From assembly GCA_965243565.1 (NCBI GenBank), contig OZ251571.1:321523-385522 (forward strand): a DNA stretch of 64,000 nt, written 5' to 3'. The notes under the pieces were generated by a model. The model was given only the letters and a program-made list of their open reading frames with translations, had not been told where the DNA came from and searched no databases. This stretch comes from Gammaproteobacteria bacterium. Its GTDB lineage: Bacteria > Pseudomonadota > Gammaproteobacteria > Tethybacterales > Persebacteraceae. Within the stretch, counting starts at the first letter, position 1; every line of letters begins with the position of its first letter. This document shows, piece after piece, positions 2,403 through 32,295 of the stretch. The position numbers and the translations under genes were made by a program.

Positions 2403-2428
2403 AGAGACTTTATAAGGAGATATAAGTA

Positions 2429-3958: not shown

Positions 3959-3992
3959 TCCATTTTTTAAATTAAAACAGGAATATAAATTA

Positions 3993-5273: not shown

Positions 5274-5827
5274 GTAAGTGGACAATTATATTATTGATAC
5301 TTCTATTAATGGGTAGCGGGTGGTCGTACTATAAATGGCAAAAACCCAAGAGAATAGAGGCAGAGCAACAGCTTCAAACAGAATATAAAAAATATAAAAG
5401 GCATAAAAGTGTAGCTGAAAGATTTAGTAAAAGCATTGAGTCATCGGAGTTAAATATTGATGAAGATAATAAAAATTACAAAAATTTCAGATTTTCATCA
5501 GAAACAAGTCATTTTGACTTTCGTTTGAAATTGTATGATGCTTTGAATGAAAAAATAAAAGATATTGGCCTTGAAGAATTTAAATTAATAGAAACATCCG
5601 AGCAAGTAGGGTCCCCTAGATCTCAGAATTTACCAAAAATACATAAAACTTATGCGACAGAATACTACTTTTCTATTGAAGGTGAGGCTAGTTATGGACA
5701 AGTAGTTGCTTTTATTTTGAAAAAATTACCAGATTTACCAGTGGCAGTAACTCGAATAAAAAAAGACAAAGAGAAGTTTAAAATTAATTTTGTTGTTTGG
5801 CGAATAGAACAAGATGGTGCAAATTGA
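5261..5827 (+). CDS. Small bitopic protein with an N-terminal TM helix, GspM/PilO-like by topology.
   Basis: 'WTIILLILLLMGSGWSYY' is an N-terminal TM helix followed by a roughly 160-aa periplasmic region. Start and stop overlap the neighbouring genes (4-nt and 14-nt overlaps), indicating translational coupling. Confidence 0.35.
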   Translation: MRILSKWTIILLILLLMGSGWSYYKWQKPKRIEAEQQLQTEYKKYKRHKSVAERFSKSIESSELNIDEDNKNYKNFRFSSETSHFDFRLKLYDALNEKIKDIGLEEFKLIETSEQVGSPRSQNLPKIHKTYATEYYFSIEGEASYGQVVAFILKKLPDLPVAVTRIKKDKEKFKINFVVWRIEQDGAN

Positions 5828-7655
5828 AGCGAAAGATTCAAAGTCTTCAACAGAAATAAGTAAAGAAGTCATCAACTTTTATGTTGATGAAGGTATTCGT
5901 TCTTATATAATAGAAGCAGCAGCCAGACGTGCTTCATGGAAAAAAACAGGTGAAAGAGGGTTTGAAGATACACTTGTAGAAATGCTTGGTGCAGGAGCTT
6001 CTTCTGTTTTAAAAGCCATTGCAAAACGTTGGAGTATTCCTTTTGTAGATGAACTTCAACCACCGGGAGAGTTATTAAGTGTTATAGAAGACTCAAAACT
6101 ATTCAATAAAGATGGTTTTATTTCTATTTATAATGGCGAATACGTGCCATTTCGCACCAACGGCAATACTCTAGATCTTATATGTAGTAGCCGTCGATCG
6201 CGTGATAAAGGAATAAATGACTTTATCCGTTTACGTTTGGTTAACGAAGAGCATATTAATGTTACAACTTCTTTGGCAAGTAAAGCACTTATAACAAAAG
6301 CCTTCCATCTTTATTTTTCAGATGGCTCAAGAGAATTGAACGGTGCATTGCGAAAAATGGAAGCTATGCTTCTTGCAGGGCAAGATTTTTCAGATTACGA
6401 TATAGCCGAAGCGGTGGTTTTTTTGTTTGCAAGAGCGGCTTATTCTGGAGCAAGTGATGCCATGATATTTGTAACAGAAACGTCGGCTCTATACAAACTA
6501 AAAATTTCAGGTGTTGCTCTATTGGCTGCAGAAACTGAACCAGTTGTTTTGGCTGCTATATTAAGAGTACTTGTTAATGTATTTGCGGGTGAAAATGACA
6601 GTTCTTTGGACGAAAGTCCACAAGAAACATTAATTGATTTTAACGATGACCATATGAGCAAAAGTGGTAATATAGACAAACGCTCAAGACTGATGTTAGA
6701 GCGAGCAAAAGGGTTATTAGGAGGTTATCGTTTTCGTTTACAATTAGCAAAGCCACAGCCTAGAACATCGGATGGTGTTTATGCAGTATTTCGTGTCCTT
6801 AAAAAAGAAGCGTCTAACGCATCGCTATCGAAATTAGGCTATGGGAGCAATACGCCACTTTTAAAAACGGCAGTATGTAGAAAAGAAGGGCTAATACTTT
6901 TTGTTGGTACGACTGGTTCTGGTAAAACCACTGGTGCTGACGCAATGGTTGGTGAAGTTGACCCGATTAGACGGTGGGTTTATACAATTGAAAATCCAAT
7001 TGAATTCCAACATCCTTTGTTTATGCAGCATGAGGTTAGAGGGGGAAGCGAAGAATATTTAAAAATTATTAAGTCATTCTTACGATCTAGTCCAGATGTT
7101 TGCTTTTTTGGAGAAACGCGCGAGGCAGAAGTAGCACTTCGCCTTTGTGAGTTAGCCTTAACCGGAAGTTTGGTTATAAGTACCTTACATGCACCCGACG
7201 CAGTGTCTGCCATACAAAGAATGAGAGCGTGGGGCATTGATAACAACAGTATAAGCGAAACATTGATTTTAATTGTTGGTCAACGTTTATTTCCTAGAAT
7301 TTGTGTCCATTGTTCGGAGCCTATTTCTGGAGAGTTCGGTAAAAAAATACATGAATTGGTTAAAAATTTAAGAGATGATTTAAAAGAAATCGTCATGACG
7401 AGTGACGTTGTTAAAAAAGCCAACGAAGAAGGTTGTAAACATTGTTTTTATACTGGGTATAGTGGTCAGTGGTTGGTCTATGAAATGTTGCCTGTTAACG
7501 CTGAGTTACGTGCTAAAATTGTAGCAGGTGACGCGCCTGATCAGATGCGACGATTTTTACATAGAGAACAAGATATGTATATAGGGATTGCAAGAGGCGT
7601 TGGTCATGGTATACTAGATGTTGAAAGTGCGTTACCAGAACTATTAGGAGCTTAA
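5814..7655 (+). CDS. Type II/IV secretion assembly ATPase of the GspE/PilB/TcpT family.
   Basis: Walker A 'GTTGSGKTT', Asp box 'YTIENPIEF', Walker B 'DVCFFGETRE', His box 'LVISTLHAPDA'. Tetracysteine Zn motif 'CVHCSEP...CKHC'. About 350 aa of N-terminal extension precede Walker A. Confidence 0.9.
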   Translation: MVQIEAKDSKSSTEISKEVINFYVDEGIRSYIIEAAARRASWKKTGERGFEDTLVEMLGAGASSVLKAIAKRWSIPFVDELQPPGELLSVIEDSKLFNKDGFISIYNGEYVPFRTNGNTLDLICSSRRSRDKGINDFIRLRLVNEEHINVTTSLASKALITKAFHLYFSDGSRELNGALRKMEAMLLAGQDFSDYDIAEAVVFLFARAAYSGASDAMIFVTETSALYKLKISGVALLAAETEPVVLAAILRVLVNVFAGENDSSLDESPQETLIDFNDDHMSKSGNIDKRSRLMLERAKGLLGGYRFRLQLAKPQPRTSDGVYAVFRVLKKEASNASLSKLGYGSNTPLLKTAVCRKEGLILFVGTTGSGKTTGADAMVGEVDPIRRWVYTIENPIEFQHPLFMQHEVRGGSEEYLKIIKSFLRSSPDVCFFGETREAEVALRLCELALTGSLVISTLHAPDAVSAIQRMRAWGIDNNSISETLILIVGQRLFPRICVHCSEPISGEFGKKIHELVKNLRDDLKEIVMTSDVVKKANEEGCKHCFYTGYSGQWLVYEMLPVNAELRAKIVAGDAPDQMRRFLHREQDMYIGIARGVGHGILDVESALPELLGA

Positions 7656-7662
7656 AAAATAT

Positions 7663-8904
7663 ATGTCTAATCAACGTCCAGGAGTAAAAGGTGACTATTA
7701 TACTTATACCGGAAAAAATTTAGATGGTGAAAAAGAATCAGGTATGGTTTTTGCAACATCGGTTGCCTTGGCTAAGCGATCTGCTGCTAAACGTCTTTTG
7801 TCTGTTCAATCAATATTTAAAGACCCAGTAGCAAATATAGCTTGGAATTTGGGAGATGGTTATTCCAAAGAACAAGTTGCGCGTATGTTTCGTGTTATTG
7901 GAGACAACCTCGAAAGAGGGTCATCTTTGCCCGAAAGCATTTCATTGGCTCGACTGTTTGTAAGCGATCCATATTTACGTTGTGCTTGTTTTAACATACT
8001 AGATCTTATGTCAAGCGGTAAGTCTTTATCGGCTGCTATGGCTGCATCACATTTTAGTGTTGCAGATTGTACTATTGTGGCATCTGTCAGAGGTGGTGGT
8101 GGTGGAGACGCAAATCAAGGAGGCTACGCTAATGCGTTTAGAATTCGTGCGCATGCTTTGGAATTCGAGGCAAAAGGAGAAAAAGAATTAAATCAAGCAT
8201 TAGTTCCATTTATTATCTTTTTGATATTTATTATTGTTATGGTATATATACTGTTGTTTGTAATGGGTAAGCATTCTGGTGATATGTTAAGCGGTGCAAT
8301 ACCCAAGAGAAATCAAATAGGTTTTGTCGGGGGGTATATTAACTTTTTGCAGGATCTCCAAGAAAACATAGGGCTATATACTACTATATATTTTACGTTT
8401 GGAGCGGGGATTATTTTCCCTTTATTTGTAAAGCAACTGCGTTATAAAATGATATCATTCGCTTTTCCATCATTTTCAAAATTTAAATTAGAGCTAGATC
8501 AATACAAGACTTGGCAATTATGGCAGTTACTTCGAATTTCAGGTGTGGATAATGTCCGTATTTTTGCATTAACAGCTAAAATTGTTGATAACCCACTAAT
8601 AATGCAGCAAAATAAAGCGATAATGGAGCAAACCAGACGAGGAAGAGGGCTTGCTGTAATCGTTCGAGATGTGATAAAATCAGCACGATTAAGAGAGCAG
8701 CTAACCTCCGTTCTTGAAGGAAAGTCAGCAGACAAAGGCATGGATATAGTATTATCATTACTACAATTACAAGTAAACGAATACAAAAATAGAGCAGTCT
8801 TATTATTTGGTGGTATGACAAAAGGTATTGTCGCACTTGCTCTGGTTAGTATGATGCTAATGATTATTGGGCCCTCTTTTATGCTAATGGCCAATATAAA
8901 TTAA
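7663..8904 (+). CDS. Inner-membrane platform protein of the GspF/PilC/TcpE family.
   Basis: 413 aa. Three predicted TM segments ('LVPFIIFLIFIIVMVYILLFV', 'LYTTIYFTFGAGIIFPLFV', 'IVALALVSMMLMIIGPSFMLMA') separated by cytoplasmic domains. It sits directly after the ATPase. Confidence 0.7.
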   Translation: MSNQRPGVKGDYYTYTGKNLDGEKESGMVFATSVALAKRSAAKRLLSVQSIFKDPVANIAWNLGDGYSKEQVARMFRVIGDNLERGSSLPESISLARLFVSDPYLRCACFNILDLMSSGKSLSAAMAASHFSVADCTIVASVRGGGGGDANQGGYANAFRIRAHALEFEAKGEKELNQALVPFIIFLIFIIVMVYILLFVMGKHSGDMLSGAIPKRNQIGFVGGYINFLQDLQENIGLYTTIYFTFGAGIIFPLFVKQLRYKMISFAFPSFSKFKLELDQYKTWQLWQLLRISGVDNVRIFALTAKIVDNPLIMQQNKAIMEQTRRGRGLAVIVRDVIKSARLREQLTSVLEGKSADKGMDIVLSLLQLQVNEYKNRAVLLFGGMTKGIVALALVSMMLMIIGPSFMLMANIN

Positions 8905-8950
8905 AGAATTTTTAATAAAACAAAAACTATAAAAAAAAAAGGAGAAAATA

Positions 8951-9517
8951 ATGAAAATTATAAATAAAATAAGCATAATCAAAGGTCGCTTGCGTCAAGT
9001 AGGTTTTACACTGGTGGAACTTGCTTTGGTGGTTGCTGCTTTGGCGATTATTTCAGTTAGTGCTATTGTTGTAAGTGATAGTGTGTTAAGCAATGCACGT
9101 TCATCGTCAATGATTAGTCAAATTAACACAGTACAGACATCTGCCGAATTGGCAAGAGTACATACCAGTTGTAGGGCTTTAAAATTGAATTTCTTAGTAA
9201 CTGATGCAAACGCTGCCGATAATTCATGTGGTAAAGCCAACCTTGCAGGCTGGGAAGGTCCATATATAAGGAATGCAATTATTTTGACTACTGGTATAAT
9301 GAGTCTTGAGACTGTAGCCGCTGGTGCGGAGATGGAAATGAAAGTGGTAGGTGGGATTGCAATTCTTGAGGTGGAAGCAGGCTCAAATGACGTTTTAGAT
9401 GGCATAGTGGCTAGCGTTTGTCCAGATAATCTAGCAGCTTCCTCTCTGGCTAATATTAGTGCTACGAAAACTTGTTTTAGTACCGGTAGTGTAGTAAATC
9501 TCTATATGTCTCAATAA
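8951..9517 (+). CDS. Major type IV prepilin.
   Basis: Leader 'MKIINKISIIKGRLRQVG' followed by 'FTLVELALVVAALAII' gives Gly-1, Phe+1 and Glu+5. Four Cys residues allow two disulfides including a C-terminal D-region pair. Strong SD 'AAGGAG' 7 nt upstream. Hairpin terminator downstream. Confidence 0.8.
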   Translation: MKIINKISIIKGRLRQVGFTLVELALVVAALAIISVSAIVVSDSVLSNARSSSMISQINTVQTSAELARVHTSCRALKLNFLVTDANAADNSCGKANLAGWEGPYIRNAIILTTGIMSLETVAAGAEMEMKVVGGIAILEVEAGSNDVLDGIVASVCPDNLAASSLANISATKTCFSTGSVVNLYMSQ

Positions 9518-9565
9518 TGGTATCTGATTTGTAATTTTACTAAAACAATATTCATTAAAATTTGG

Positions 9566-9600
9566 TTTAGAAGTATTTTTTAATACTTCTAAACTTTTTT
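9566..9600 (+). terminator. Rho-independent terminator/attenuator after the major pilin gene.
   Basis: Perfect 12-bp inverted repeat tttagaagtatt / aatacttctaaa (9566-9577 / 9582-9593) with a 4-nt loop, followed by TTTTTT at 9595-9600. The stem is AU-rich. Confidence 0.45.
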
Positions 9601-9613
9601 AACAGATAAAGCA

Positions 9614-10522
9614 ATGAAATTTAAGCAAAAAGGTGTAACACTGGTTGAACTTTCTTTGGGGCTAGTTGCAACAGCTGTAATTGTGGGGGCGTTATTCCCA
9701 CAATTAGCGCTTGTATTTAGACATATTGAAAGCATACACAACGATAAATTTACGTCACATATTCGTCAAATACTTGTAGAATTTTACCGAAGAAATCCAG
9801 AGGATTTTGTTTCTAATGGAGCTCCCGCTGCCACAGTAGTGGATGTTGTTGATATTAATGAGTTTGCAACAGGAGCATTGGATGATGTCAGTGTTGATTT
9901 TAATAATGAAACATGGCATTATGTGGCTTGCTCAACAAGTGGTCAAATTACGGTACAGCCAGGGGGCGTTCTTAATTTCTGTGATATCATAGGCTACCGT
10001 AACGATGCTCCTCTTACTCTTAATTTAAACAATCGAAATTTGAATTTTTGGAATGGTCTAGTAAACGACGATACAATTGAGAGATTCGAAATAATTTCTG
10101 GACGTTCAATTATTCAAGATCAAATCGACATTACCCGACAGCGTGTAGAAAGGGTGAGAGAGAATTTAGAACAACACGCGGACACACTATTTCGCACAGC
10201 AAAACAAAGAGCATATAGAGTAAATCGTTATGTGGACCATTCAGTAGAAGATACTTATAAAACCAATTATGACTATGATGGTCGAGCAATTTTTGATCGA
10301 AGTCCCGCTATTAATCATGGCGAACGAGCGGCGCTTGGCTTTAATACTAATGATCTTATAACTCCCTTATCAACTGATCTTATTCAAATTGATAATACAT
10401 CAGCAAATATAAGATCGAATGATCATGGGCATGACCCTCCATATACTGCAGAAGTTTTTGTTATTATAAATGCGGGTGGTCTTGCTATCAGAGTGAGTAG
10501 TTTAGCAGTCACAAAAAACTAG
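9614..10522 (+). CDS. Large minor pilin-like protein, paralog 1 of 3.
   Basis: Prepilin N-terminus 'MKFKQKG|VTLVEL' with Glu+5. 302 aa. Shares the Cys-pair block 'W.YV.CS....FCDI.GYRN' and the C-terminal 'DLITP...IDNT...PYTAEVFV' block with the ORFs at 10602 and 13106. Confidence 0.7.
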   Translation: MKFKQKGVTLVELSLGLVATAVIVGALFPQLALVFRHIESIHNDKFTSHIRQILVEFYRRNPEDFVSNGAPAATVVDVVDINEFATGALDDVSVDFNNETWHYVACSTSGQITVQPGGVLNFCDIIGYRNDAPLTLNLNNRNLNFWNGLVNDDTIERFEIISGRSIIQDQIDITRQRVERVRENLEQHADTLFRTAKQRAYRVNRYVDHSVEDTYKTNYDYDGRAIFDRSPAINHGERAALGFNTNDLITPLSTDLIQIDNTSANIRSNDHGHDPPYTAEVFVIINAGGLAIRVSSLAVTKN

Positions 10523-10601
10523 CTAAAAAAATAGGTAATTATTGATAAATTACATATAATAGTACTTAAAAGATACAAATCTAAATATTAATTTATTAAC
10601 A

Positions 10602-11528
10602 ATGAAAATTCAGATTAAAAATCAAAGAGGTGTAACACTGGTTGAAATAGCCATATCTATTGTGCTATTATCTGTGCTTATAACTGTGCTGTTTAATGCG
10701 CTGGGTAATGCAATAGGAAGTATTCAGTATATTAAAAACGAAAAATTTTCACAACATATGCAAAAAACGGTTCTTGAATATTACAAACAAAATGTTTCAG
10801 ATCCTGCTGTAAATCCGCGGACGAGTCAATTCATGGTTGGTGCAGGTAACCCTGCGCCAGTACACATACCTGCAGCTGCTATAAATCCATTTTCATCTGG
10901 CGTTGTTACAGATGTTGCTATTGATTTTAATAACAATAGATGGTGGTATGTGAACTGCTCGTTTAATAATCCTAATAACGTTATAGCAGTAGGGGAGCAA
11001 AATTGGCGCTTTTGTGACATAGTTGCTTACAGAAATGAGAATCAATTGCCTGTAGCCGATTTAGTAATGACAAATATTGCGTTTTGGAATAATAGATTAA
11101 ATGCCAATGTAATTGATGACTACATTATTATATCTGGTAGTAATGTAGTACATGAGGCTGTTTCACAAACACGCAAATCTGTTAAGAGAGTTCGTGATTT
11201 ATTAGAAAATTATTACGTGCTACTTGTTTCGCATACAGAAGAACAACCTTATTTTATTAATCGATTTGCAGGTCATGATGGTTTTAATAAGCAAAGTCAA
11301 ACTTCATATGATGTACGATCGGCATTAAATTCAGACAATGTACTAGATAATAATGAATTATCTGCTATAGGTCTTGTGCCTAATGACTTAATAACACCGT
11401 TCGGAAGCATACAAATTGATAACACAAATAACAATAGGTTCCCTTATACAGCACAGGTGTTTGTTAATTTTCAAGATGTTAATGCGGACACTCTTAAAAT
11501 CAGTACACTTGCTGTTTCTAAACTTTAA
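10602..11528 (+). CDS. Large minor pilin-like protein, paralog 2 of 3.
   Basis: 'MKIQIKNQRG|VTLVEI' with Glu+5. 308 aa. Conserved blocks 'WWYVNCS...RFCDIVAYRN' and 'NDLITPFGSIQIDNT...PYTAQVFV'. Confidence 0.7.
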   Translation: MKIQIKNQRGVTLVEIAISIVLLSVLITVLFNALGNAIGSIQYIKNEKFSQHMQKTVLEYYKQNVSDPAVNPRTSQFMVGAGNPAPVHIPAAAINPFSSGVVTDVAIDFNNNRWWYVNCSFNNPNNVIAVGEQNWRFCDIVAYRNENQLPVADLVMTNIAFWNNRLNANVIDDYIIISGSNVVHEAVSQTRKSVKRVRDLLENYYVLLVSHTEEQPYFINRFAGHDGFNKQSQTSYDVRSALNSDNVLDNNELSAIGLVPNDLITPFGSIQIDNTNNNRFPYTAQVFVNFQDVNADTLKISTLAVSKL

Positions 11529-11540
11529 TAGGAAAAAATT

Positions 11541-12215
11541 ATGAAAAAAAACATTATAAAATTAATAAGTATTGGCTTGGTTTTTTCTGCACAGGTACAT
11601 GCAGAAGAAGTTGATTTATTTGATTACTGCAAGCAAATGGCAAAAGGATTCGCGATATTAGAGGTTAAAACTCAATTAAACTCAAAAGATGATTTAAATA
11701 CCTGCCGTCAATATATTGCTGAATTAGGAGAATTACGTAAACAATTTATCGTCATTGAAGAGTTCGATAGTTTGATTGATGAAGAGGAAGCCGAAGAAGC
11801 AATAGTTGAAGAAGATTATGTCACAGTTGATGATGCTATTTTACTAATACAGAATGAAATAAATAGTCTAAAATCTAAAATTGATAAAGATATAAGCAAG
11901 CAATTAGAAAAAATTAAAAGTGAGCAGCAACCAATTATTACTAATATTGAACAAAATCCAAATGTATCGCCTGTTGAAGAGCAAAAGCAACGGACAGTAG
12001 CAATACAACAACCTAAATCGTTTGAAATGGTTACATTCGTTGGACAGTTGCGTCAAGGGGGAGAGGATAAATACATAATCCAGGTGGATGGCAACCTAAT
12101 CCAATTAACTGAACAAGAAATGTACAAAGGATTTGCTTTTACAAAACAAGGTGACAATTATTATTTGGGAGATATAAAAGTGGCGGATAATCTAGAAACA
12201 TTGGAATCTAACTAA
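11541..12215 (+). CDS. Secreted periplasmic protein of unknown function, paralogous to the ORF at 14153.
   Basis: Signal peptide 'MKKNIIKLISIGLVFSAQVHA'. Conserved 'YC...C..Y.AEL.ELR' block, an acidic coiled linker, and a C-terminal 'YIIQVDGNLIQLTEQEMYKG' block shared with the 14153 ORF. Confidence 0.5.
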   Translation: MKKNIIKLISIGLVFSAQVHAEEVDLFDYCKQMAKGFAILEVKTQLNSKDDLNTCRQYIAELGELRKQFIVIEEFDSLIDEEEAEEAIVEEDYVTVDDAILLIQNEINSLKSKIDKDISKQLEKIKSEQQPIITNIEQNPNVSPVEEQKQRTVAIQQPKSFEMVTFVGQLRQGGEDKYIIQVDGNLIQLTEQEMYKGFAFTKQGDNYYLGDIKVADNLETLESN

Positions 12216-12267
12216 ATATTAGATTGTAGTTTAATGCGACATTATCATTTCATTCAGGAAGCGATTA

Positions 12268-13131
12268 GTGATTAATTCTAGGAGACACAATTATAACTAT
12301 GTACATAGTCAAAAAGGATTGGCATTATTATCGCTGATTCTTTTATTGGGTATAGTTTTAGGTGTAGCGTTGGTTGCATTTTATAATGTAATCGCAGAAG
12401 AGCGTTTAGCACTCCAAAATAATACCACTGATGAAAAATTACAAACTGTAGTTGATGACACAGAGGCTTATTATAGGCATAATCCTGATTTCACTGCACC
12501 CGGTTTTGCAGCTAATGTCTGTTCTTTTGCACTGGCAGTTAGTCCTCCGTTTGGATGTGCATTATCGCCGACTCAATTTTGGGGACGAGAAGGCGAGGTT
12601 ACATTTTTTAATATCCTTATTTTTGAACCTAATGCTGATCTTGCTGATAATGCAACGGTGCCAGTGGCTGCGATTAATGGAGAACAGATACAGTTAAACG
12701 CACAGCGAAATCTAAGAGAGCAACTTCGTAGAATCGTCTCAGTCATAGAAATAAACCATCAGCAAATGCACCAAATCAATGCTGGTGGTCATGCAGATAC
12801 TGGTGTTAATTTGTATTGTTTGAATGGGAACTCTCAAATAGGTCTATTGGGGTGTGAAAGCGATTGGACACCCCTACCTGCTGCTTTCTTAAGTGCGTAC
12901 TTAGCACCAGGAGATCAGGTATCTCCGTTCGGTACTCCTATTGTATACCAGACAGCAGGGACTGTCACCTTAACTGATGTCATTGACAACTATACAATCA
13001 GACCGAATGATTCTTATGATGTTGTGGCAGCCGTAGTTTCTGCAACTACACCTTGGGATAATAATGGGGTGGCTTTTCGAGAATGGGCTGTGGCACTAAA
13101 GGGAAATGCATACCATGATCTCGCGCAATAA
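12268..13131 (+). CDS. Pilin-like protein lacking Glu5, GspK/PilX-like in that respect.
   Basis: Basic leader ending 'SQKG', then the hydrophobic helix 'LALLSLILLLGIVLGVALVAF' with Ser rather than Glu at +5. 287 aa. Embedded among the other pilin-like genes. Confidence 0.4.
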   Translation: MINSRRHNYNYVHSQKGLALLSLILLLGIVLGVALVAFYNVIAEERLALQNNTTDEKLQTVVDDTEAYYRHNPDFTAPGFAANVCSFALAVSPPFGCALSPTQFWGREGEVTFFNILIFEPNADLADNATVPVAAINGEQIQLNAQRNLREQLRRIVSVIEINHQQMHQINAGGHADTGVNLYCLNGNSQIGLLGCESDWTPLPAAFLSAYLAPGDQVSPFGTPIVYQTAGTVTLTDVIDNYTIRPNDSYDVVAAVVSATTPWDNNGVAFREWAVALKGNAYHDLAQ

Positions 13132-14107
13132 AGGTATTACGCTTATAGAAATGGCAATAACTATTGCCGTACTTACTGTTTTAACTGGCGCAGTATTAGT
13201 GTCAGTGCCATTTGATTTGTTAAGTAATCTTCGTCAAAAAAATCATAAAGATTCTGTTGGTATTGTTTTGGATGCCTACTATCAAGTAAATATTGGAAAT
13301 TTAGTTTTTCCCACTGCTGCGGACGTGATTCTAACTACTATTAGTTTTGATGAGATAGAAGCCATTGGGAGGAATCTTAAACTTAATCAAGAAATAAATT
13401 TTAGTCAAGATTCTGGTGGGAGAAATTGGTTTTATGCGCAATGTTCAACATCAGGATTTTTGGATCATGCTGACATCTTTGTTTCTATAGATTCTTCCAC
13501 TAAAATATCATATTGTGGTCTTGTTGCTTATACAACGGGTGAAGCGGGGGCACCACTTGCGAATGATGTTATTAAAAACAAAACTATAGCAGATTGGCAA
13601 AATGCAACAGTGAATCCAGCAATCGAAGATTATGTTATTGTCGAAGGTCGAAGAGGTGTGAGTGCTGAAATAAACAAAACATCTGATAAATTAAATGCAG
13701 TTGTAACAGCATTTGAAGAGTACTATAGACTTTTAGATTCGAATGACCCTGTCGCAGGTATCGCAATTAATCGATTTTCTCATACACCATCACAGAATTA
13801 TGATTTACAGAGAAGAACGATTGATAAAATATCAATTTTACGCAATACTGAAGTAAAAGCTAATGATGATCATTTACTTACACGAAGTTATCAGGCTATA
13901 ATGAAAATTTCAGACGAGACTCTTAATACAGGGTTTGGCGAAATACAATTTGATAATGGCTCCACCAGCATACGAACATCTTCTCACACAACACCGGCTT
14001 ATAAGGTGTACCAAGGACCACCCTATACAGTTGAGTTATGGGTAGAGTTATCCGGGAATGGTGCTATAATGCGGAAGACGGCATCATCTAAAATTTACGG
14101 GTATTAA
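13106..14107 (+). CDS. Large minor pilin-like protein, paralog 3 of 3.
   Basis: 'MISRNKG|ITLIEM' with Glu+5; the start is probably the ATG at 13115. Conserved 'NWFYAQCSTSGF...SYCGLVAY' and 'GFGEIQFDNGSTSIRTS...PPYTVELWV' blocks. Confidence 0.7.
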   Translation: MHTMISRNKGITLIEMAITIAVLTVLTGAVLVSVPFDLLSNLRQKNHKDSVGIVLDAYYQVNIGNLVFPTAADVILTTISFDEIEAIGRNLKLNQEINFSQDSGGRNWFYAQCSTSGFLDHADIFVSIDSSTKISYCGLVAYTTGEAGAPLANDVIKNKTIADWQNATVNPAIEDYVIVEGRRGVSAEINKTSDKLNAVVTAFEEYYRLLDSNDPVAGIAINRFSHTPSQNYDLQRRTIDKISILRNTEVKANDDHLLTRSYQAIMKISDETLNTGFGEIQFDNGSTSIRTSSHTTPAYKVYQGPPYTVELWVELSGNGAIMRKTASSKIYGY

Positions 14108-14152
14108 TGGTATTAATACAATAAAAAATACAAATTTTAAAGGGGTTTTACT

Positions 14153-14872
14153 TTGAATAAATTAAAATTAATAGTTTTATTTTCTTTGCTATTAACAGGC
14201 TCTGTACAAGCAGAGAGTATTGATATCGAAGTATTATCAGTAGAGTACTGTAAAAAATTTCGTGAGGGAGCAACCGTTAATGTTGATAACAATATTCCTG
14301 ATCCAAGTAGTGGCAAAACAGAAATGGCTACAAGTTTTGACGTTACCATCTCTGAAATGGTTAAATGTAAAAAATACTTTGCCAATCTTACCGAACTTAG
14401 GCAGACAATACAGGATGTTAATAGTGATACTGACACAGAATTAGGACGAACTGACGATGTTTTACAAAATAATAATGTTATTTCGCTAGAAAGTTTCAAA
14501 GAAGAAATGGCGTACGAACTTGCTTTATTTGAGGAAAAATATTTTTCGCAAAAGAAAATCGAAATAGAAAATTATGTGCAAAAAATTAACTACGAAGCGC
14601 GTCAGTTAGCGCGTAACAGCAATACCGTTAGAAATACCGTCACTGCGGCCGTTAATCAAACAGCTGATGTTGCCAGCAACAGAGTGCAAACAAAAAAAGA
14701 AGCACCACTATTCTTATTACAAGGGACTTTTCGTCAAAGTGGTACTGAATACTATATCATTAAGAGCTTTGATCAATTGATAACCTTAAAAGAGGGTGAT
14801 TCTTTTAAGGGGAAAAAATTACTTAAAAACCCAAAAGGTCTATATTTTGATGATTATCGTATCATTCAATAA
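14153..14872 (+). CDS. Secreted periplasmic protein, paralog of the 11541 ORF.
   Basis: Signal peptide 'MNKLKLIVLFSLLLTGSVQA'. Shared Cys-pair and C-terminal 'YYIIKSFDQLITLKEGDSFKG' blocks. Confidence 0.5.
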   Translation: MNKLKLIVLFSLLLTGSVQAESIDIEVLSVEYCKKFREGATVNVDNNIPDPSSGKTEMATSFDVTISEMVKCKKYFANLTELRQTIQDVNSDTDTELGRTDDVLQNNNVISLESFKEEMAYELALFEEKYFSQKKIEIENYVQKINYEARQLARNSNTVRNTVTAAVNQTADVASNRVQTKKEAPLFLLQGTFRQSGTEYYIIKSFDQLITLKEGDSFKGKKLLKNPKGLYFDDYRIIQ

Positions 14873-17578: not shown

Positions 17579-17784
17579 AAAAATACCATAGAGGATTTTT
17601 CTTTATTTTCTAGAGTAGAGCGCTATAAGAAAACGAGATAAAATATTGATAAAATACAGTAATGTCAATATAAAATCATTTTTTACATTATTTGCTATGC
17701 TTTCATTTTCAAATAAGTTATTAGATAGGCAATGATTTTTAGAGTGAAAAAGCATATAATATATTGATTGTAAAATAGAATATT

Positions 17785-19656
17785 ATGAAAGACAGTAAAC
17801 ATTTATATATTGATTACTTTAATTTAAAAGAACCACCTTTTAAGATAACGCCAACCACGAGCTATTTTTATGGCGGTGGAAAAAGAGGAGAAATTTTACA
17901 CGCATTGTTATATGCCATTAATTCTGGTGAGGGGATTATGTTGCTAACTGGTGAGGTGGGTAGTGGCAAAACCATGATACTTAGAACACTCGTGGATCAG
18001 CTAAGCGAAAAAACAGATATTATTTATATTGCCAATCCCAGTTTGTCCGGTAGTGAAATTTTATACAATATATGTGAAGAGTTAGGATTACAATCTGAAG
18101 AAAAAAAGCCCGATACTGTTCGTATATTACAAAACCACTTGATTCAAAGGCACCAAGAGGGTTATCGTGTGGTTGCTTTTATTGATGAAGCACAAGCAAT
18201 GCCGGATGAATCACTTGAAGAGATTCGATTATTGTCTAATTTGGAAACAAGTCGTGATAAATTATTACAAATTGTATTGTTTGGACAACCAGAACTAGAA
18301 GAAAAACTGTCAAAACAACATTTGCGACAATTGCGCGAACGTATCACGGTGGCGCTTAAAATAAAACCATTTACCAAAGAGGATATAAAAGAATATATAT
18401 CAACGCGTTTGCATGCCGCTGGACACGATGGCAAACAATTATTTACCAATGACGCGTATCGAATCATCTTTGCTGTTTCGAAAGGTATTTCTCGTCGAAT
18501 TAATGTATTGGCGGATAAAACGTTACTATCAGCGTTTGCCCGTGGCTCACTCATTGCAGAAAAAATTGATGCCAAGATGGCTGCACGTGATGTGAGTTAT
18601 GGCAAGCTCTTGTATCGGTCGGAACAAAACCGTCTTTTTTCTAAATTTATTACCATTGGTTGTACGGTAGGGTGTTTATTAATTATTACCGTATTTTCGT
18701 TTATTTATTTTGGTGAACAGGTCACAGCATCATTTGCTGAAGAGCCAGTGGCAGACAAACCCGTACAGAGTAAAGTCGTAAAAAAAGATACAGTAATACA
18801 AAACACCATTGAAATCGCACTGAATGAAATTATTAATGCCCAAGAAAAACAGTCTGAGCTTGAAGTAGCAGTTGTTATTGAAGAGGAATCCGAGCCAGTT
18901 ATACAACCCGATGTAGAGGTGGTAATTGTTGAGGAATCCGAGCCAGTTATACAACCCGATGTAGAGGTGGTAATTGAAGAGGAATCCGAGCCAGTTATAC
19001 AACCCGATGTAGAGGTGGTAATTGTTGAGGAACAACCTAAAGTAGTTTCTAAGAAAGTTGAATCTGTTAAACAGCAAACCAAACCGGTAAATATTGGTAA
19101 ACAAATGTCTCAAACTATTGTACAGTTACAACAACAAAAAGAGGTTGCTTTAAGTGGAGAACAACTAGCACTTGAGATTTCCAAACATGCCGAAGAACAC
19201 ACGGATGGACCTCAAGTAGAAGGTGGACAAACGGAATGGCAAATAGTTGTTAAAAAGAAAACAACTGAATCATTGGGTATTGTAGAAAATAGTCAGTGGG
19301 ATTGGATGCCTGCATCAAGTTATTTGCGTAGCCGCTTGAACGCAACGCAAACATGGATAAAAAACAACCCTGACCAGCAGCAATATACCTCACGACTAAT
19401 AACGGTGTCGCAAGAGCGCGCTATATTTTTAGAAAAATTCCTTCGTTACTTTGCCGATTATTACCCTATTCGCAATGTATTGGTTTATCCCATCCAATTA
19501 AAAAGTGGTAAGAAATTCGTTGTCAATTTTGGTGTTTATCCATCGCAAAGTGATGCTGAAGTTTTTATTAATAATATCCCCCGTTATTTTACGGGTGGCG
19601 AGCCTTATGCTCAAGAAATTAGTTCTATTGTAAAAGAATCACAGGATTTATGGTAA
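17785..19656 (+). CDS. ExeA/GspA/MshM-family AAA+ ATPase with a TM segment and a periplasmic C-terminal SPOR-like domain.
   Basis: AAA_22-type Walker A 'LLTGEVGSGKTMILRTL'. TM helix 'FITIGCTVGCLLIITVFSFIYFG'. C-terminal 'VVNFGVYPSQSDAEVFINNIP' resembles a SPOR fold. The periplasmic linker contains an acidic tandem repeat. Confidence 0.75.
   Translation: MKDSKHLYIDYFNLKEPPFKITPTTSYFYGGGKRGEILHALLYAINSGEGIMLLTGEVGSGKTMILRTLVDQLSEKTDIIYIANPSLSGSEILYNICEELGLQSEEKKPDTVRILQNHLIQRHQEGYRVVAFIDEAQAMPDESLEEIRLLSNLETSRDKLLQIVLFGQPELEEKLSKQHLRQLRERITVALKIKPFTKEDIKEYISTRLHAAGHDGKQLFTNDAYRIIFAVSKGISRRINVLADKTLLSAFARGSLIAEKIDAKMAARDVSYGKLLYRSEQNRLFSKFITIGCTVGCLLIITVFSFIYFGEQVTASFAEEPVADKPVQSKVVKKDTVIQNTIEIALNEIINAQEKQSELEVAVVIEEESEPVIQPDVEVVIVEESEPVIQPDVEVVIEEESEPVIQPDVEVVIVEEQPKVVSKKVESVKQQTKPVNIGKQMSQTIVQLQQQKEVALSGEQLALEISKHAEEHTDGPQVEGGQTEWQIVVKKKTTESLGIVENSQWDWMPASSYLRSRLNATQTWIKNNPDQQQYTSRLITVSQERAIFLEKFLRYFADYYPIRNVLVYPIQLKSGKKFVVNFGVYPSQSDAEVFINNIPRYFTGGEPYAQEISSIVKESQDLW
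18880..19032 (+). repeat. In-frame tandem repeat of about 45-51 nt, three copies, encoding '(E)EESEPVIQPDVEVVI(V)', inside the ExeA-like gene.
   Basis: The unit 'gaggaatccgagccagttatacaacccgatgtagaggtggtaatt' is directly repeated three times, with gaa/gtt insertions between copies. Confidence 0.8.
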
Positions 19657-25717: not shown

Positions 25718-25818
25718 GCAAGATAAGCGGGTTATGGTCGCACTGACAGAGGGCAATTAGGGCTGCTTCCTTCCAGACCTGACCCGGTTTTCGCCATACC
25801 ATGCAACTAAACCCGCAA
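25718..25818 (-). ncRNA. ffs: Signal recognition particle 4.5S RNA (ffs).
   Basis: The minus-strand sequence 'CCGGGUCAGGUCUGGAAGGAAGCAGCC' matches the universally conserved SRP domain IV. The 5' arm 'GCGGGUUUAGUUGCAUGGUAUGGC' pairs with the 3' arm 'GCGACCAUAACCCGC'. A TATAAT -10 box lies about 7 nt upstream. Confidence 0.8.
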
Positions 25819-29372: not shown

Positions 29373-32294
29373 ATGGGGAGTTTGGATCAGGAATACGGCG
29401 TACAATCAAGCATACAATCGGCTGATGTACAGCAAAATAAAATATTTTCTTCGGGCATTGTTACACCAGAAGAAGACTACAAAATTATTCGTCGCAATGG
29501 TATGGTTGTGTCTTTTGACAGAACCAAAATAAAAGTTGCCATTACCAAAGCATTTTTAGCGGTACGTGGTCAAACTGTTGCCGATTCCACTGCCGTTCGT
29601 ACCATCATCGAACAAACCACTGAACAAGTTATTCAGGCGTTATTTCGCCGTAAAACTTTAATTGCGACATTCCACATCGAAGACGTACAAGACCATGTTG
29701 AGTTGGCATTAATGCGTGGTGGACATCATGATATTGCCCGCGCGTATGTATTGTATCGCGAAGCCCACACTAATAGTCGGCGGGATCAACTGGATGTTAT
29801 GGCGGAGCAAGAAATTTACTTTGTTACCGAAGCTGGAATGCGCCAAATTTTGGATATTCATGTCTTGTCTGACCGTATTCAAATGGCATGTGCAGGACTT
29901 TTGGAGGTTGATTCAAAAAAATTACTCAAGATGACATTACGTGATTTGTATGATGGCATTAGCGAAAAAGATTTAAATACGGCATTGTTTATGGTGGCAA
30001 GGAGTTTTATCGAGCGTGAGCCTGAATACTCTTACGTGAGTGCGCGTTTATTATTAGACATGTTACGGCGGGAGATTTTTGGTTGTTACGTCCAACAATC
30101 GCAAATGGAAACGGAATACAAAGATCATTTGCAGCACATGCTAGAAAAAGGAGTGGCAGCCGAATTACTTGATGAACGTTTGTTAACAATTTTTGATTTG
30201 GAGCGTCTAGGCTTGACGTTAAATGCCTCCAGAGATTTGCAGTTTAATTATTTAGGCTTACAAACGCTTTATGACCGCTATTTCTTACATATCCGTGGGC
30301 AACGCATAGAAATGCCCCAAGTCTTTTTTATGCGGGTAGCGATGGGTTTGGCAATAGAAGAAGATGACCCTACCCAGCGAGCGATTGATTTTTATGAAAT
30401 GTTATCAACATTTCGTTTTATGAGCTCCACGCCCACCTTATTTAATTCGGGTACTCTGCGTTCACAGCTATCAAGTTGTTATTTAACCACCGTGCCAGAC
30501 GACTTAGACGGCATTTTTGAATCCTACAAAGAAAATGCTTTATTGGCAAAATATGCGGGTGGTTTGGGCAATGATTGGTCATCGGTAAGAGCCATGGGAG
30601 CACATATTAAAGGCACTAATGGTCAATCACAAGGCGTTATCCCCTTTTTAAAATTGGTCAATGACACAGCGGTTGCGGTTAACCAAGGCGGAAAGCGTAA
30701 AGGAGCGGTTTGTGCGTATTTAGAATCTTGGCATCTTGATATTCTCGACTTTCTTGATTTGCGTAAAAATTCGGGTGATGACAGACGTCGAACACACGAT
30801 ATGAATACGGCGAATTGGATTCCAGATTTATTCATGAAGCGCGTAATTGACGATAAAAATTGGACACTTTTTTCACCCAACGATGTGCCAGAACTTCACA
30901 GTTTATTTGGTGCTGCCTTCGAAAAAAAGTATGTCGAATACGAAGAAAAAGCCGCTGCTGGTGAACTTCGTAGCCAATCCATAGAAGCAGTTTCGTTATG
31001 GCGGCGTATGCTCACCATGCTATTTGAAACAGGGCATCCGTGGATTACCTTTAAAGACGCTTGCAATGTGCGCTCACCACAACAACACGTAGGAACCGTT
31101 CATTCCTCGAATCTATGTACCGAAATCACTCTTAATACCAATGCCGAAGAAATTTCCGTATGTAATTTGGGCTCGGTTAATTTGGTGGCACACATCAAAG
31201 ACAAACAGTTAGACACTGAAATGCTGGCAACCACTATAAAAACAGCCATGCGTATGTTAGACAATGTTATCGACATCAATTATTATTCGGTCGAAAAAGC
31301 CAAGCAATCGAATCTACGTCACCGTCCAGTTGGTTTGGGGATTATGGGTTTTCAGGATTGTTTATACGAGTTAGGTATTTCTTATTCATCCAATGAAGCC
31401 GTTGAATTTGCCGATAAATCAATGGAAAAAATTTGTTATGAAGCCTATTGGGCATCCACCGAATTAGCCGAAGAACGTGGTTCTTACGAAACGTTTTCGG
31501 GAAGTTTATGGGAACAGGGGATTATGCCTATGGACACTTTGCGTTTATTGGCAAAAGAGCGAGGTGATTCGGTTGATATGAGTGGCGAATTACTACCTAC
31601 TCAAAAAACACTCAATGGTCAATACTTACAAATTAATACCCAACAAACGTTGGATTGGGATGCCTTGCGTGGTCGTATTAAACAACATGGCATGAGAAAT
31701 TCCAATTGCACGGCAATTGCCCCCACTGCCACCATTGCCAATATTGTTGGTGTTACAGCATCCATTGAACCGACCTTTCAAAACATTTTCACCAAATCAA
31801 ATTTGTCGGGAGAATTTGTGGTGTCCAACCGTTATTTGGTTGATGAACTCAAAGCACTGGATTTGTGGGACGATGTCATGCTAGAAGACATTAAGTTTTT
31901 TGATGGACGATTAGATAAGATTGATCGTATTCCTCATTCCATTCGTCAAAAATACCCAACCTCATTTGAAGTAGATCCGTTTTGGTTAATCGAATGTGCT
32001 GCCAGAAGACAAAAATGGATTGATCAAGCGCAATCACTCAATTTATACATTGCCGCTCCTTCGGGCAAACTACTAGACGAAATGTATAAAACCGCATGGT
32101 TGCGTGGTTTAAAAACAACCTATTATTTACGCTCATTGGCAGCCAGCAGCACCGAAAAATACACCACTCGTACCGGGGCGCATAATTCAGTGGCAGCCAA
32201 TGGCGAGATGAATGGCTCCAATGGTTCCAATGGTGCTGATGCCCAACCACGTGCTTGTGCCATTGATGACACTGAATGTGAATCTTGTCAATAA
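29373..32294 (+). CDS. nrdA: Class Ia ribonucleotide reductase alpha subunit with tandem N-terminal ATP-cone domains.
   Basis: ATP cone 'KIIRRNGMVVSFDRTKIKVAI'. Active-site region 'NLCTEI'. C-terminal redox tail '...CAIDDTECESCQ'. Its 973-aa length is consistent with a duplicated ATP cone. Confidence 0.95.
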   Translation: MGSLDQEYGVQSSIQSADVQQNKIFSSGIVTPEEDYKIIRRNGMVVSFDRTKIKVAITKAFLAVRGQTVADSTAVRTIIEQTTEQVIQALFRRKTLIATFHIEDVQDHVELALMRGGHHDIARAYVLYREAHTNSRRDQLDVMAEQEIYFVTEAGMRQILDIHVLSDRIQMACAGLLEVDSKKLLKMTLRDLYDGISEKDLNTALFMVARSFIEREPEYSYVSARLLLDMLRREIFGCYVQQSQMETEYKDHLQHMLEKGVAAELLDERLLTIFDLERLGLTLNASRDLQFNYLGLQTLYDRYFLHIRGQRIEMPQVFFMRVAMGLAIEEDDPTQRAIDFYEMLSTFRFMSSTPTLFNSGTLRSQLSSCYLTTVPDDLDGIFESYKENALLAKYAGGLGNDWSSVRAMGAHIKGTNGQSQGVIPFLKLVNDTAVAVNQGGKRKGAVCAYLESWHLDILDFLDLRKNSGDDRRRTHDMNTANWIPDLFMKRVIDDKNWTLFSPNDVPELHSLFGAAFEKKYVEYEEKAAAGELRSQSIEAVSLWRRMLTMLFETGHPWITFKDACNVRSPQQHVGTVHSSNLCTEITLNTNAEEISVCNLGSVNLVAHIKDKQLDTEMLATTIKTAMRMLDNVIDINYYSVEKAKQSNLRHRPVGLGIMGFQDCLYELGISYSSNEAVEFADKSMEKICYEAYWASTELAEERGSYETFSGSLWEQGIMPMDTLRLLAKERGDSVDMSGELLPTQKTLNGQYLQINTQQTLDWDALRGRIKQHGMRNSNCTAIAPTATIANIVGVTASIEPTFQNIFTKSNLSGEFVVSNRYLVDELKALDLWDDVMLEDIKFFDGRLDKIDRIPHSIRQKYPTSFEVDPFWLIECAARRQKWIDQAQSLNLYIAAPSGKLLDEMYKTAWLRGLKTTYYLRSLAASSTEKYTTRTGAHNSVAANGEMNGSNGSNGADAQPRACAIDDTECESCQ

Positions 32295-32295
32295 A

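Follow-up and report, generated by a model that had tools for sequence, protein, structure and literature searches.

The AAA+ gene at 17785..19656 (forward strand) of the window, by which we mean the whole 64-kb stretch of DNA that we analyzed, raises the question of which cell-envelope machine its product serves. An earlier note on this DNA had described the product as an ExeA/GspA-family protein and had tied it to a secretin-containing filament cluster nearby. As judged from the ORF list, homologs, and an AlphaFold model, this is a complete gene (623 amino acids plus a stop codon) for an MshM/ExeA-like AAA+ ATPase with a transmembrane helix, an acidic linker, and a SPOR-type domain, and we will refer to it as the AAA-SPOR gene. 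Full-length homologs are 41-61% identical to the protein, which itself occurs only once, on a single contig, in a collection of about 15 billion proteins. Upstream of the gene lie coxB and an aldehyde dehydrogenase gene; downstream, at a distance of 27 bp, is the convergent hslU.

The cytoplasmic ATPase domain (residues 7-254; 17803..18546, + strand) is of the COG3267/AAA_22 type, based on Pfam, TIGR03015, and pLDDT. Pfam AAA_22 matches residues 47-175 (E = 3.8e-29), and the domain has a pLDDT of 75-92 in the full-length AlphaFold model. Operon-encoded relatives that are labelled in IMG have AAA domains with 50-55% identity to it. Searches of the translation located a Walker A motif (GEVGSGKT, residues 56-63; 17950..17973, + strand; by regular expression) and a Walker B motif (VAFIDE, residues 130-135; 18172..18189, + strand), and G56, G59, G61, K62, and T63 of the former and I133, D134, and E135 of the latter are invariant in the alignment of homologs. 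The AAA domain had no match among PDB sequences (phmmer). We also considered, and rejected, the ATPase of XrtA/PEP-CTERM systems (TIGR03015): the score is 223.1 bits as compared to a cut-off of 324.5, and there are no exosortase or EPS genes nearby.

A single transmembrane helix follows at about residues 288-310 (18646..18714, + strand). Kyte-Doolittle hydropathy reaches its maximum (2.39) at residue 289, and residues 280-315 form a helix in the full-length AlphaFold model. Lysines and arginines precede the helix and acidic residues follow it; by the positive-inside rule, the protein is predicted to be N-in/C-out. Pfam, hydropathy, and AlphaFold all match the topology that the earlier note had read from the sequence, with a cytoplasmic AAA+ domain, one transmembrane helix, a periplasmic linker, and a peptidoglycan-type domain.

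The periplasmic linker (residues 313-500; 18721..19284, + strand) was delimited by composition, pLDDT, and alignment. It is acidic and of low complexity (38 D/E versus 16 K/R in 188 amino acids), it is predicted to be disordered (pLDDT 28-54 in the AlphaFold model), and it is hypervariable between homologs, with no conserved columns in the alignment. Within it lies an in-frame tandem repeat of 48 nt and 3.1 copies (18883..19032, + strand; 96% match), which is by far the top tandem repeat of the 64-kb window (TRF score of 286, versus 92 for the next). The earlier note had reported three in-frame copies of a 45-51-nt unit; the frame, the acidic character, and the copy number stand, and the unit is uniformly 48 nt. 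The repeat encodes 16-aa units of the form EESEPVIQPDVEVVI[V/E], and the copies vary at a single codon only (GTT/GAA). This threefold 16-aa repeat has recently expanded. Sister lineages have linker repeats of their own, which differ in copy number between near-identical sister proteins.

At its C-terminus, the protein has a divergent SPOR domain, which goes undetected by Pfam. With its preceding helix, this DamX-type domain spans residues 505-618 (19297..19638, + strand), and its core is residues 534-612. In a Pfam scan, the full-length protein does not reach the gathering score for SPOR (PF05036) and has no PG_binding_1 domain. The earlier note had suggested searching the C-terminus with these two models, and a Pfam scan of the C-terminal 182 amino acids and of the linker found nothing at E ≤ 10. 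Taken alone, this result would have led us to reject the SPOR idea wrongly. AlphaFold models the core as an RNP-like β-α-β-β-α-β fold (pLDDT 93.4), and the best Foldseek match of the C-terminal model is DamX. The SPOR chain of DamX was also matched when we compared the family profile to PDB sequences (E = 8.9e-4), and hhalign aligned the domain to DamX with E = 1.5e-4. In a profile search, 58 of 86 remote homologs matched PF05036 (best 1.9e-25), including 19 that also bear AAA_22, and the SPOR domain has a pairwise match to an IMG "ExeA/DamX" protein (E = 6e-9). Profile, fold, and transitive homology thus agree with the earlier note, which had seen a SPOR-like fold at the C-terminus in place of PF01471. 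From the fold and the homology, we infer that the domain probably binds peptidoglycan; against this stand the failure of Pfam's SPOR model to recognize it and the replacement, described below, of the Gln that is the best conserved of the glycan-contacting residues. Its mean column identity is 65%, while the linker is unalignable. A word-indexed homolog search with the C-terminal alignment returned just 10 proteins, all of them fragments, so it says little about the wider family of this domain; a profile scan of genome contigs with the same alignment yielded only 7 true loci, all in MAGs.

The alignments suggest that the binding face of this SPOR domain has been remodelled in the window's clade, by a change from Gln to Arg at one position and from Arg to Gln at another. 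SPOR domains have a canonical glutamine in strand β1 (RlpA Q270 or FtsN Q251), which hydrogen-bonds to the MurNAc lactyl and GlcNAc acetyl groups (PMC6895207). At this position (column 39 of the profile alignment), 111 of 119 distant SPOR domains have Q, as do 68 of 73 operon-encoded relatives, but the window's protein has Arg537 (in "YTSRL"; 19393..19395, + strand), and R is invariant in its clade. The reverse is found at column 112, which is a conserved Arg/Lys position of the basic patch that has been described for SPOR domains (PMC6895207). R is present there in 93 of 113 distant SPOR domains, and the window's clade has an invariant Q, which in our protein is Gln610 (in "PYAQ"; 19612..19614, + strand) and which hhalign places opposite K418 of DamX. 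Both of the swapped positions surround the MurNAc lactyl carboxylate in characterized SPOR domains.

How does this protein relate to known systems? ExeA from Aeromonas and GspA from E. coli (b3323) also combine a cytoplasmic AAA_22-class ATPase, a single membrane-spanning segment, and a module in the periplasm that binds peptidoglycan, and the role proposed for both them and our protein is peptidoglycan-anchored help for a secretin. The earlier note's description as an ExeA/GspA homolog is therefore apt for the AAA_22 ATPase and the single transmembrane helix, but not as a statement of orthology. The best BLASTP segment against E. coli GspA covers 36 amino acids at the P-loop only (E = 0.065), and E. 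coli GspA has C39-like (PF21327) and PF01471 domains and an adjacent gspB, all of which are missing here. There are no gsp genes within the window, and the note was right that no gspB partner follows, as the downstream gene is the convergent hslU. We believe that the AAA-SPOR gene should not carry the GspA or ExeA name.

Closer counterparts exist. The AAA_22-linker-SPOR architecture is already known from PA5037 of Pseudomonas aeruginosa and from IMG "ExeA/DamX" proteins (COG3267 plus SPOR), and the window's protein has all four parts of the AAA_22-TM-SPOR family in one polypeptide. PA5037 (PA14_66580) is alike, going by its descriptions in the literature (PMC6321873, PMC9712689), in its ExeA-like AAA ATPase, its membrane anchor, and its SPOR domain. 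The genes for PA5037 and the "ExeA/DamX" proteins lie close to an operon with a type IV pilus secretin, whereas the window's gene has neither a secretin neighbor of its own nor a sigma54 regulator, and its clade differs from them by the Arg in place of the canonical Gln and the Gln in place of the basic-patch Arg. A mutant in PA5037 had fewer polar pili and reduced twitching, and PilQ multimers were normal in P. aeruginosa when PA5037 was deleted (PMC6321873), so secretin multimerization is not established as the mechanism even for this relative. As for the C-terminal domain, the closest solved structure is that of DamX from E. coli, which is likewise bitopic with a long disordered linker. Unlike the window's protein, DamX has no AAA+ domain, matches Pfam's SPOR model (2e-14), and keeps the canonical Gln351 and Lys418 (PMC6895207).

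The wider family is genuinely associated with secretins. We surveyed 80 metagenomic loci, and in essentially every one with enough downstream flank, a secretin gene lies directly after the AAA-SPOR homolog. Almost every locus with enough flank encodes the sigma54 regulator, the AAA protein, the secretin, T2SSE, T2SSF, and conserved proteins of unknown function. The order of genes in the operon is sigma54 regulator, AAA-SPOR, MshL secretin, TPR protein (MshN-like), MshE, MshG, and three further conserved genes, and 70 of the 77 complete AAA genes in these metagenomic operons encode a SPOR tail. At a reference locus (L016), the secretin attains the cut-off of the MshL equivalog, and the ATPase carries the c-di-GMP domain of MshE. 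The family thus resembles MshM of MSH (mannose-sensitive hemagglutinin) type IV pili, with which it shares the ExeA-like AAA domain and adjacency to MshL, the MshN-like TPR protein, MshE, and MshG, but it has an additional transmembrane helix, linker, and SPOR tail. The gene order also differs: in Vibrio, the msh genes are in the order L-M-N-E-G, and in this family the order is M-L-N-E-G. In a published model of the MSH system, mshM is a mandatory, signature component (PMC6668835). Because the homologs lie in a conserved secretin operon at 80 loci, we consider the family-level link to secretins to be real; at this level, through an MSH-type pilus operon, the secretin association that the earlier note had proposed holds.

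In the gene's own clade, we found no secretin gene in the flanks of 12 loci. In four relatives (L002, L004, L014, and L015), the genes for the sigma54 regulator and AAA-SPOR are followed by kdsD-kdsC-lptC-lptA-lptB-rpoN; the AAA-SPOR stop codon overlaps the start of kdsD in L014, L015, and L004, and the two genes are adjacent in L002. In the window and in its closest relative (L001), the AAA-SPOR gene is not beside kdsD or lpt genes. The window has no msh genes alongside the AAA-SPOR gene, whereas the wider family does belong to msh loci, and HMMs for components of the partner operon (T2SSF, unk519, unk226, and unk134) had no match in the window. Judging by gene order, the AAA-SPOR gene has been uncoupled from any secretin in this Tethybacterales-related clade. 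That it keeps its place next to kdsD, lpt genes, and rpoN in the clade might indicate another function.

In this genome, the adjacent regulator has been lost as well. In relatives, the AAA gene directly follows, and often overlaps, a gene for a sigma54-dependent response regulator; where that gene would be, the window has an AT-rich intergenic region of 206 bp (17579..17784). No remnant of the regulator was found in the window by tblastn, there was no match to a -24/-12 sigma54 promoter in 17579-17784, and scans for sigma70 promoters and terminators gave matches at chance level. When compared to NCBIfam, the relatives' upstream sigma54 regulators had only generic, sub-threshold matches of the NtrC/PrsR-like kind.

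Could the AAA-SPOR protein provide the filament cluster at 1053-14872 with the ExeA/MshM-like assembly factor that it lacks, and so help that cluster's secretin cross the sacculus? The earlier note placed the gene 3 kb from the secretin cluster, and the last ORF of the cluster, which ends at 14872, is indeed 2.9 kb upstream on the same strand, but a distance of 13.8 kb separates the AAA-SPOR gene from that for the secretin (2429-3958). The cluster contains no AAA_22 gene, the best NCBIfam match of its secretin is MshL (92.7 bits versus a cut-off of 250), and the AAA-SPOR family is the equivalent of MshM in MSH-type operons, all of which would fit. However, two unrelated genes, coxB and the aldehyde dehydrogenase gene, lie between the cluster and the AAA-SPOR gene, and the cluster occupies exactly the junction between rne and coxB in a conserved block (rne, coxB, aldehyde dehydrogenase, sometimes the regulator, and AAA-SPOR). 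Because rne and coxB adjoin in L001, where this junction is uninterrupted, the cluster looks inserted, and the nearest relative of the AAA-SPOR gene has no filament cluster. The G+C content of the cluster is 0.35-0.37, as compared to 0.39-0.41 elsewhere in the window. The only relatives that could be detected for the cluster (ATPase identities of 43% and 34%) are collinear type IVb-like modules that come right after VirB4/VirB8/VirB9/VirB10 genes and are free of AAA_22 genes to a distance of 10 kb, and the partner-operon HMMs, as mentioned above, are without a match. We also rejected the idea that the cluster is orthologous to the family's partner operon (33% identity for the ATPase, 24% for the secretin, and no BLASTP match for T2SSF). 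By its genes and its position, the cluster appears to be a type IVb-like module of the conjugative-element type that was inserted between rne and coxB. In view of this insertion, the lower G+C, and the AAA_22-less relatives, the functional link that the earlier note drew from proximity is not supported, and we consider it unlikely that the protein serves this cluster.

We are similarly doubtful of a role in division like that of DamX, in which the SPOR domain would target the protein to denuded septal peptidoglycan and the protein would modulate wall synthesis, with no tie to pili or secretion. DamX is the closest solved structure by both profile and fold, PA5037 has been called the DamX homolog of P. 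aeruginosa (PMC9712689), DamX and DedD stimulate PBP1A/1B (PMC7642682), and the clade retains the gene with no adjacent secretin. But the AAA+ domain is foreign to DamX, a secretin gene nearly always comes right after the gene in the wider family, and the canonical Gln, which characterized SPOR domains need for septal localization, is replaced here (PMC6895207). Also, damX in E. coli is itself downstream of hofMNOPQ-aroK-aroB, and hofQ encodes a secretin, so even DamX has secretin-linked synteny. The contact with kdsD in four relatives, along with a remodelled SPOR face that coincides with the kdsD-lpt context, might mean that the protein was recruited to outer-membrane or LPS biogenesis in this clade, given its conserved position before kdsD-kdsC-lptC-lptA-lptB-rpoN. 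We think this is quite improbable: the gene is away from kdsD and lpt in both the window and L001, the sigma54 regulator may be all that accounts for the synteny with the rpoN cluster, and we know of no step in the Lpt or Kds pathways that requires a protein of the AAA-SPOR type. Another reading, which we hold to be unlikely, is that AAA-SPOR was exapted in this clade after leaving the MSH-type operon: the reciprocal swap of Arg537 and Gln610 would give mirrored or altered recognition of peptidoglycan, and the protein would have a secretin-independent function in the envelope that is linked to the kdsD-lpt-rpoN neighborhood. Finally, both the operon partners and the regulator are lost, the genome appears small (a 1.68-Mb contig), and some relatives have split or frameshifted copies (L007 and fragments), as might be expected if the pilus operon had been lost and the gene were left behind, functionless and decaying. 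Yet the gene has an unbroken reading frame, its Walker motifs do not vary, an alignment of 22 homologs has many invariant columns (besides the high mean column identity of the C-terminal domain), and AlphaFold is confident about both domains, so a remnant is very hard to credit.

Given the detachment from the operon, the strong constraint, and the loss of the regulator, we read the AAA-SPOR protein as an orphaned but functional ATPase. With slightly better than even confidence, we propose that it is anchored to peptidoglycan and works in trans, either on an envelope-spanning machine whose genes lie elsewhere or in a more general envelope task, and that it is not a dedicated component of the filament cluster. 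The SPOR domain would tether the protein to the glycan strands of peptidoglycan, and the flexible acidic spacer would span the gap between membrane and wall. By analogy to how ExeA-ExeB acts for ExeD, the ATPase end may couple this anchor to assembling or stabilizing, across the wall, a type IV filament machine that has a secretin. In the window's clade, the gene has become detached from the secretin operon, yet it has been kept under strong constraint.

The "orphan filament cluster" should accordingly be annotated as a type IVb-like module and not as the partner of AAA-SPOR. More broadly, AAA_22-SPOR proteins like PA5037 occur widely among beta- and gammaproteobacteria. The position of AAA-SPOR just before an MshL-type secretin gene, in dozens of environmental genomes, is a usable lead for genetics. 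The Gln/Arg swap in this clade is a natural variant for probing how strictly the recognition of denuded glycan requires the canonical Gln.

The open reading frame at 17785-19656 (+) was confirmed, and its 623-amino-acid product has the anatomy described in the earlier note: an AAA_22 domain, a transmembrane segment, an acidic linker, and a SPOR-type C-terminus. The AAA_22 domain spans residues 47-175 (Pfam, E = 3.8e-29), with intact Walker A (GEVGSGKT at residue 56) and Walker B (VAFIDE at residue 130) motifs. The one strongly hydrophobic segment (residues ~288-310) has K/R ahead of it and acidic residues behind it, so the sequence indicates a bitopic protein with N-in/C-out topology. The linker (residues 313-500) is acidic, with 38 D/E versus 16 K/R. 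In the full-length AlphaFold model (alignment input of 22 homologues), the ATPase domain and transmembrane helix are confident (pLDDT ~75-92), as is the C-terminal domain (81-92), and the linker is unstructured (28-54). We consider this domain architecture and topology to be established. The protein belongs to an already known kind, AAA_22-SPOR, with a divergent SPOR binding face. Orthology to GspA/ExeA was rejected, as was membership in TIGR03015 (ExeA-like, PEP-CTERM ATPase), the best NCBIfam match, because the score of 223 bits is under the cut-off of 324.5.

The earlier note proposed to search the C-terminus with the Pfam SPOR and PG_binding_1 models; this gave no match at E ≤ 10, and neither the isolated C-terminus nor the linker had any Pfam match even at this threshold. 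That the C-terminal domain is SPOR-type, as the note had suggested, rests on three independent lines: sequence profile, fold, and transitive homology. A profile of 18 homologues from the protein's own clade, run against 177,635 PDB sequences, had only the SPOR chain of E. coli DamX (2lfv) at E ≤ 0.001 (E = 8.9e-4), and hhalign against full-length DamX gave E = 1.5e-4. AlphaFold on the same alignment (pLDDT 93.4) predicts a helix and then a beta-alpha-beta-beta-alpha-beta core, for which the best PDB match in Foldseek is again the DamX SPOR domain (probability 1.0, E = 1.3e-2). HMMER, run exhaustively with the profile on 1.84 billion representatives, found 134 proteins; 58 of the 86 remote matches have Pfam SPOR (best 1.9e-25), and 19 have AAA_22 as well. 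This domain probably binds peptidoglycan.

The remote members, which IMG names "ExeA / septal ring-binding cell division protein DamX", have AAA domains that are 50-55% identical to ours, and the SPOR domain of one of them aligns pairwise to it with E = 6e-9. In a Sulfuricella-type operon (L016), the AAA-SPOR gene is directly followed by a secretin that passes the MshL equivalog cut-off (262 versus 250), then by a TPR protein and an MshE-type ATPase with a c-di-GMP-binding domain; the operon also holds a GspF/PilC-type platform protein and three conserved unknown genes. Scanning metagenomes gave 80 further loci, with a SPOR tail in 70 of the 77 complete AAA genes. Where there was enough flank, a BLASTP panel found a near-constant order: (ABC ATPase), sigma54 regulator, AAA, secretin, (TPR), T2SSE, T2SSF, unk519, unk226, unk134; the operon mostly adjoins mlaF. 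Thus the family has its own operon, and the secretin link suspected in the earlier note holds at the family level. Published TFF models treat MshM as a mandatory signature for MSH systems (PMC6668835), so given the conserved operon, the most fitting description of the wider family is an MshM-like protein with a SPOR tail that belongs to MSH-type pilus operons. The three unknowns (~519, ~226, and ~134 amino acids in L018-L097 and L016) could be MshI/J/K-like alignment proteins, by size and position. A studied protein with the same architecture is PA5037 of P. aeruginosa: mutants without it twitch less and have fewer polar pili, with PilQ multimers intact (PMC6321873), and it has been counted among SPOR proteins as the homologue of DamX (PMC9712689). 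In E. coli, damX itself is found downstream of hofMNOPQ-aroK-aroB.

In the gene's own clade, the pair formed by the sigma54 regulator and AAA-SPOR genes has been uncoupled from the secretin operon. The nearest homologues (41-61% identity, full length) include MAGs of Ca. Persebacteraceae, Ca. Persebacter sydneyensis, and Ca. Zeuxoniibacter abyssi, all of the order Ca. Tethybacterales. The clade order is pcm, tolC-like, Rieske, regulator, AAA-SPOR, kdsD, kdsC, lptC, lptA, lptB, rpoN, in many cases with stop and start codons that overlap. A search of 12 clade loci detected no secretin, and one relative (L002) retains T2SSF-unk519-unk226-unk134 ~5 kb upstream. The nearest relative (L001, 59-61% identity) has rne, coxB, aldehyde dehydrogenase, sigma54 regulator, and AAA-SPOR; the window keeps this order, with coxB 70% and the aldehyde dehydrogenase 71% identical, except that the regulator (L001 5513-6820) is replaced by an AT-rich spacer of 206 bp (17579-17784). 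We detected no remnant of the regulator in the window, and no -24/-12 (sigma54-type) promoter match in the spacer.

The earlier note took the gene's proximity to a filament cluster (1053-14872) as a sign of a functional link. This was not upheld: insertion, rather than partnership, best explains the proximity. The window begins within rne (L001 RNase E matches 2-472 by tblastn), so the cluster lies precisely between rne and coxB, a junction that is unbroken in L001, and its G+C content is 0.35-0.37 versus 0.39-0.41 elsewhere in the window. It encodes a TcpQ-like protein, pilin-like genes, a GspE/PilB-class ATPase without the MshE N-domain, a weak T2SSF match, and a secretin whose best match is MshL (sub-threshold), with the type IVb PilN family next. 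A word-indexed search of 5.8 billion proteins found only two relatives of the ATPase at E ≤ 1e-30 (43% and 34% identity). Both are on metagenomic contigs (L099 and L100) whose modules are collinear with the cluster, gene by gene, and lie directly downstream of VirB4, VirB8, VirB9/CagX, and VirB10/TrbI genes, which makes this a module type found on conjugative elements. There is no AAA_22 gene within 10 kb of these two modules, and no VirB genes accompany the cluster in the window. The cluster looks like a type IVb-like pilus island derived from a conjugative element; the IncI "thin pilus" has a similar arrangement. Two paralogue-like ORFs (11541-12215 and 14153-14872) for secreted proteins of 224 and 239 amino acids bracket the island's distal pilin-like genes. 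Their N-termini are similar (a signal peptide followed by an acidic stretch that has a "YCK" motif), as are their C-terminal segments (GQLRQGGEDKYII / GTFRQSGTEYYII), and neither has a family match.

The linker contains the strongest tandem repeat of the 64-kb window (18883-19032; Tandem Repeats Finder, period 48, 3.1 copies, 96% match, score 286; the runner-up scores 92). The copies are in frame, as the earlier note stated, and the unit is uniformly 48 nt instead of 45-51 nt, encoding 16-amino-acid units EESEPVIQPDVEVVI[V/E]. The only difference between copies is one GTT/GAA codon, so they probably expanded or were homogenised recently. The repeat falls where the AlphaFold model has no structure and its lowest confidence. 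The 623-amino-acid protein was a singleton among the proteins searched, and in the family two near-identical sister pairs vary in length. P0008 (680 amino acids) and P0011 (663) differ by one 17-amino-acid unit (7 versus 6 copies) and two repeat-junction substitutions and are otherwise identical; P0079 and P0080 are set apart by a 13-amino-acid duplication in the same linker. Across the family, Tandem Repeats Finder detects tandem repeats after the AAA part in 27 of 92 genes, with a period divisible by three in 26 of the 27; these counts come from metagenome assemblies, in which copy number may be mis-assembled. Subject to such error, the two sister pairs are direct evidence that the linker is a site of repeat copy-number change in the family. 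The units of different genes are unrelated in sequence and mostly acidic, and the pattern fits a spacer whose length and charge matter and whose sequence does not. Some relatives have a separate AAA part and SPOR-bearing ORF (L007 8600-10375 from Ca. Zeuxoniibacter abyssi, and fragments P0121-P0130 and P0262-P0265), which could reflect a frameshift or a stop codon within the linker, or assembly error in a repeat-rich region.

On the SPOR binding face, the clade has exchanged two residues. The beta1 Gln is kept in 111 of 119 remote relatives and is instead an invariant Arg in the clade (R537, 19393-19395); its counterparts, RlpA Q270 and FtsN Q251, touch the MurNAc lactyl and GlcNAc acetyl groups (PMC6895207). 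Conversely, the Arg of the C-terminal "P-[YF]-x-R" motif (93/113 remote relatives), which hhalign aligns with DamX K418 of the SPOR basic patch (PMC6895207), is an invariant Gln (Q610, 19612-19614). All clade members have this state (22 aligned proteins), and the operon-encoded metagenome genes retain the canonical Gln (68/73) and Arg (68/71). In characterised SPOR domains both positions surround the same MurNAc carboxylate, so a compensating swap is plausible.

Elsewhere in the window, an N6/N4 DNA methyltransferase gene (32212-33702) has an unusual position between the genes for the large (29373-32294) and small (33762-34856) subunits of ribonucleotide reductase, overlapping the end of nrdA. 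The bacterial small SRP RNA (25723-25817, -; Rfam RF00169, 58.6 bits) adjoins dnaX.

By analogy with ExeA, the AAA-SPOR protein may anchor or assist, through the wall, a filament machine that contains a secretin. In this genome, it would act in trans, or it may have taken on another role in the envelope.
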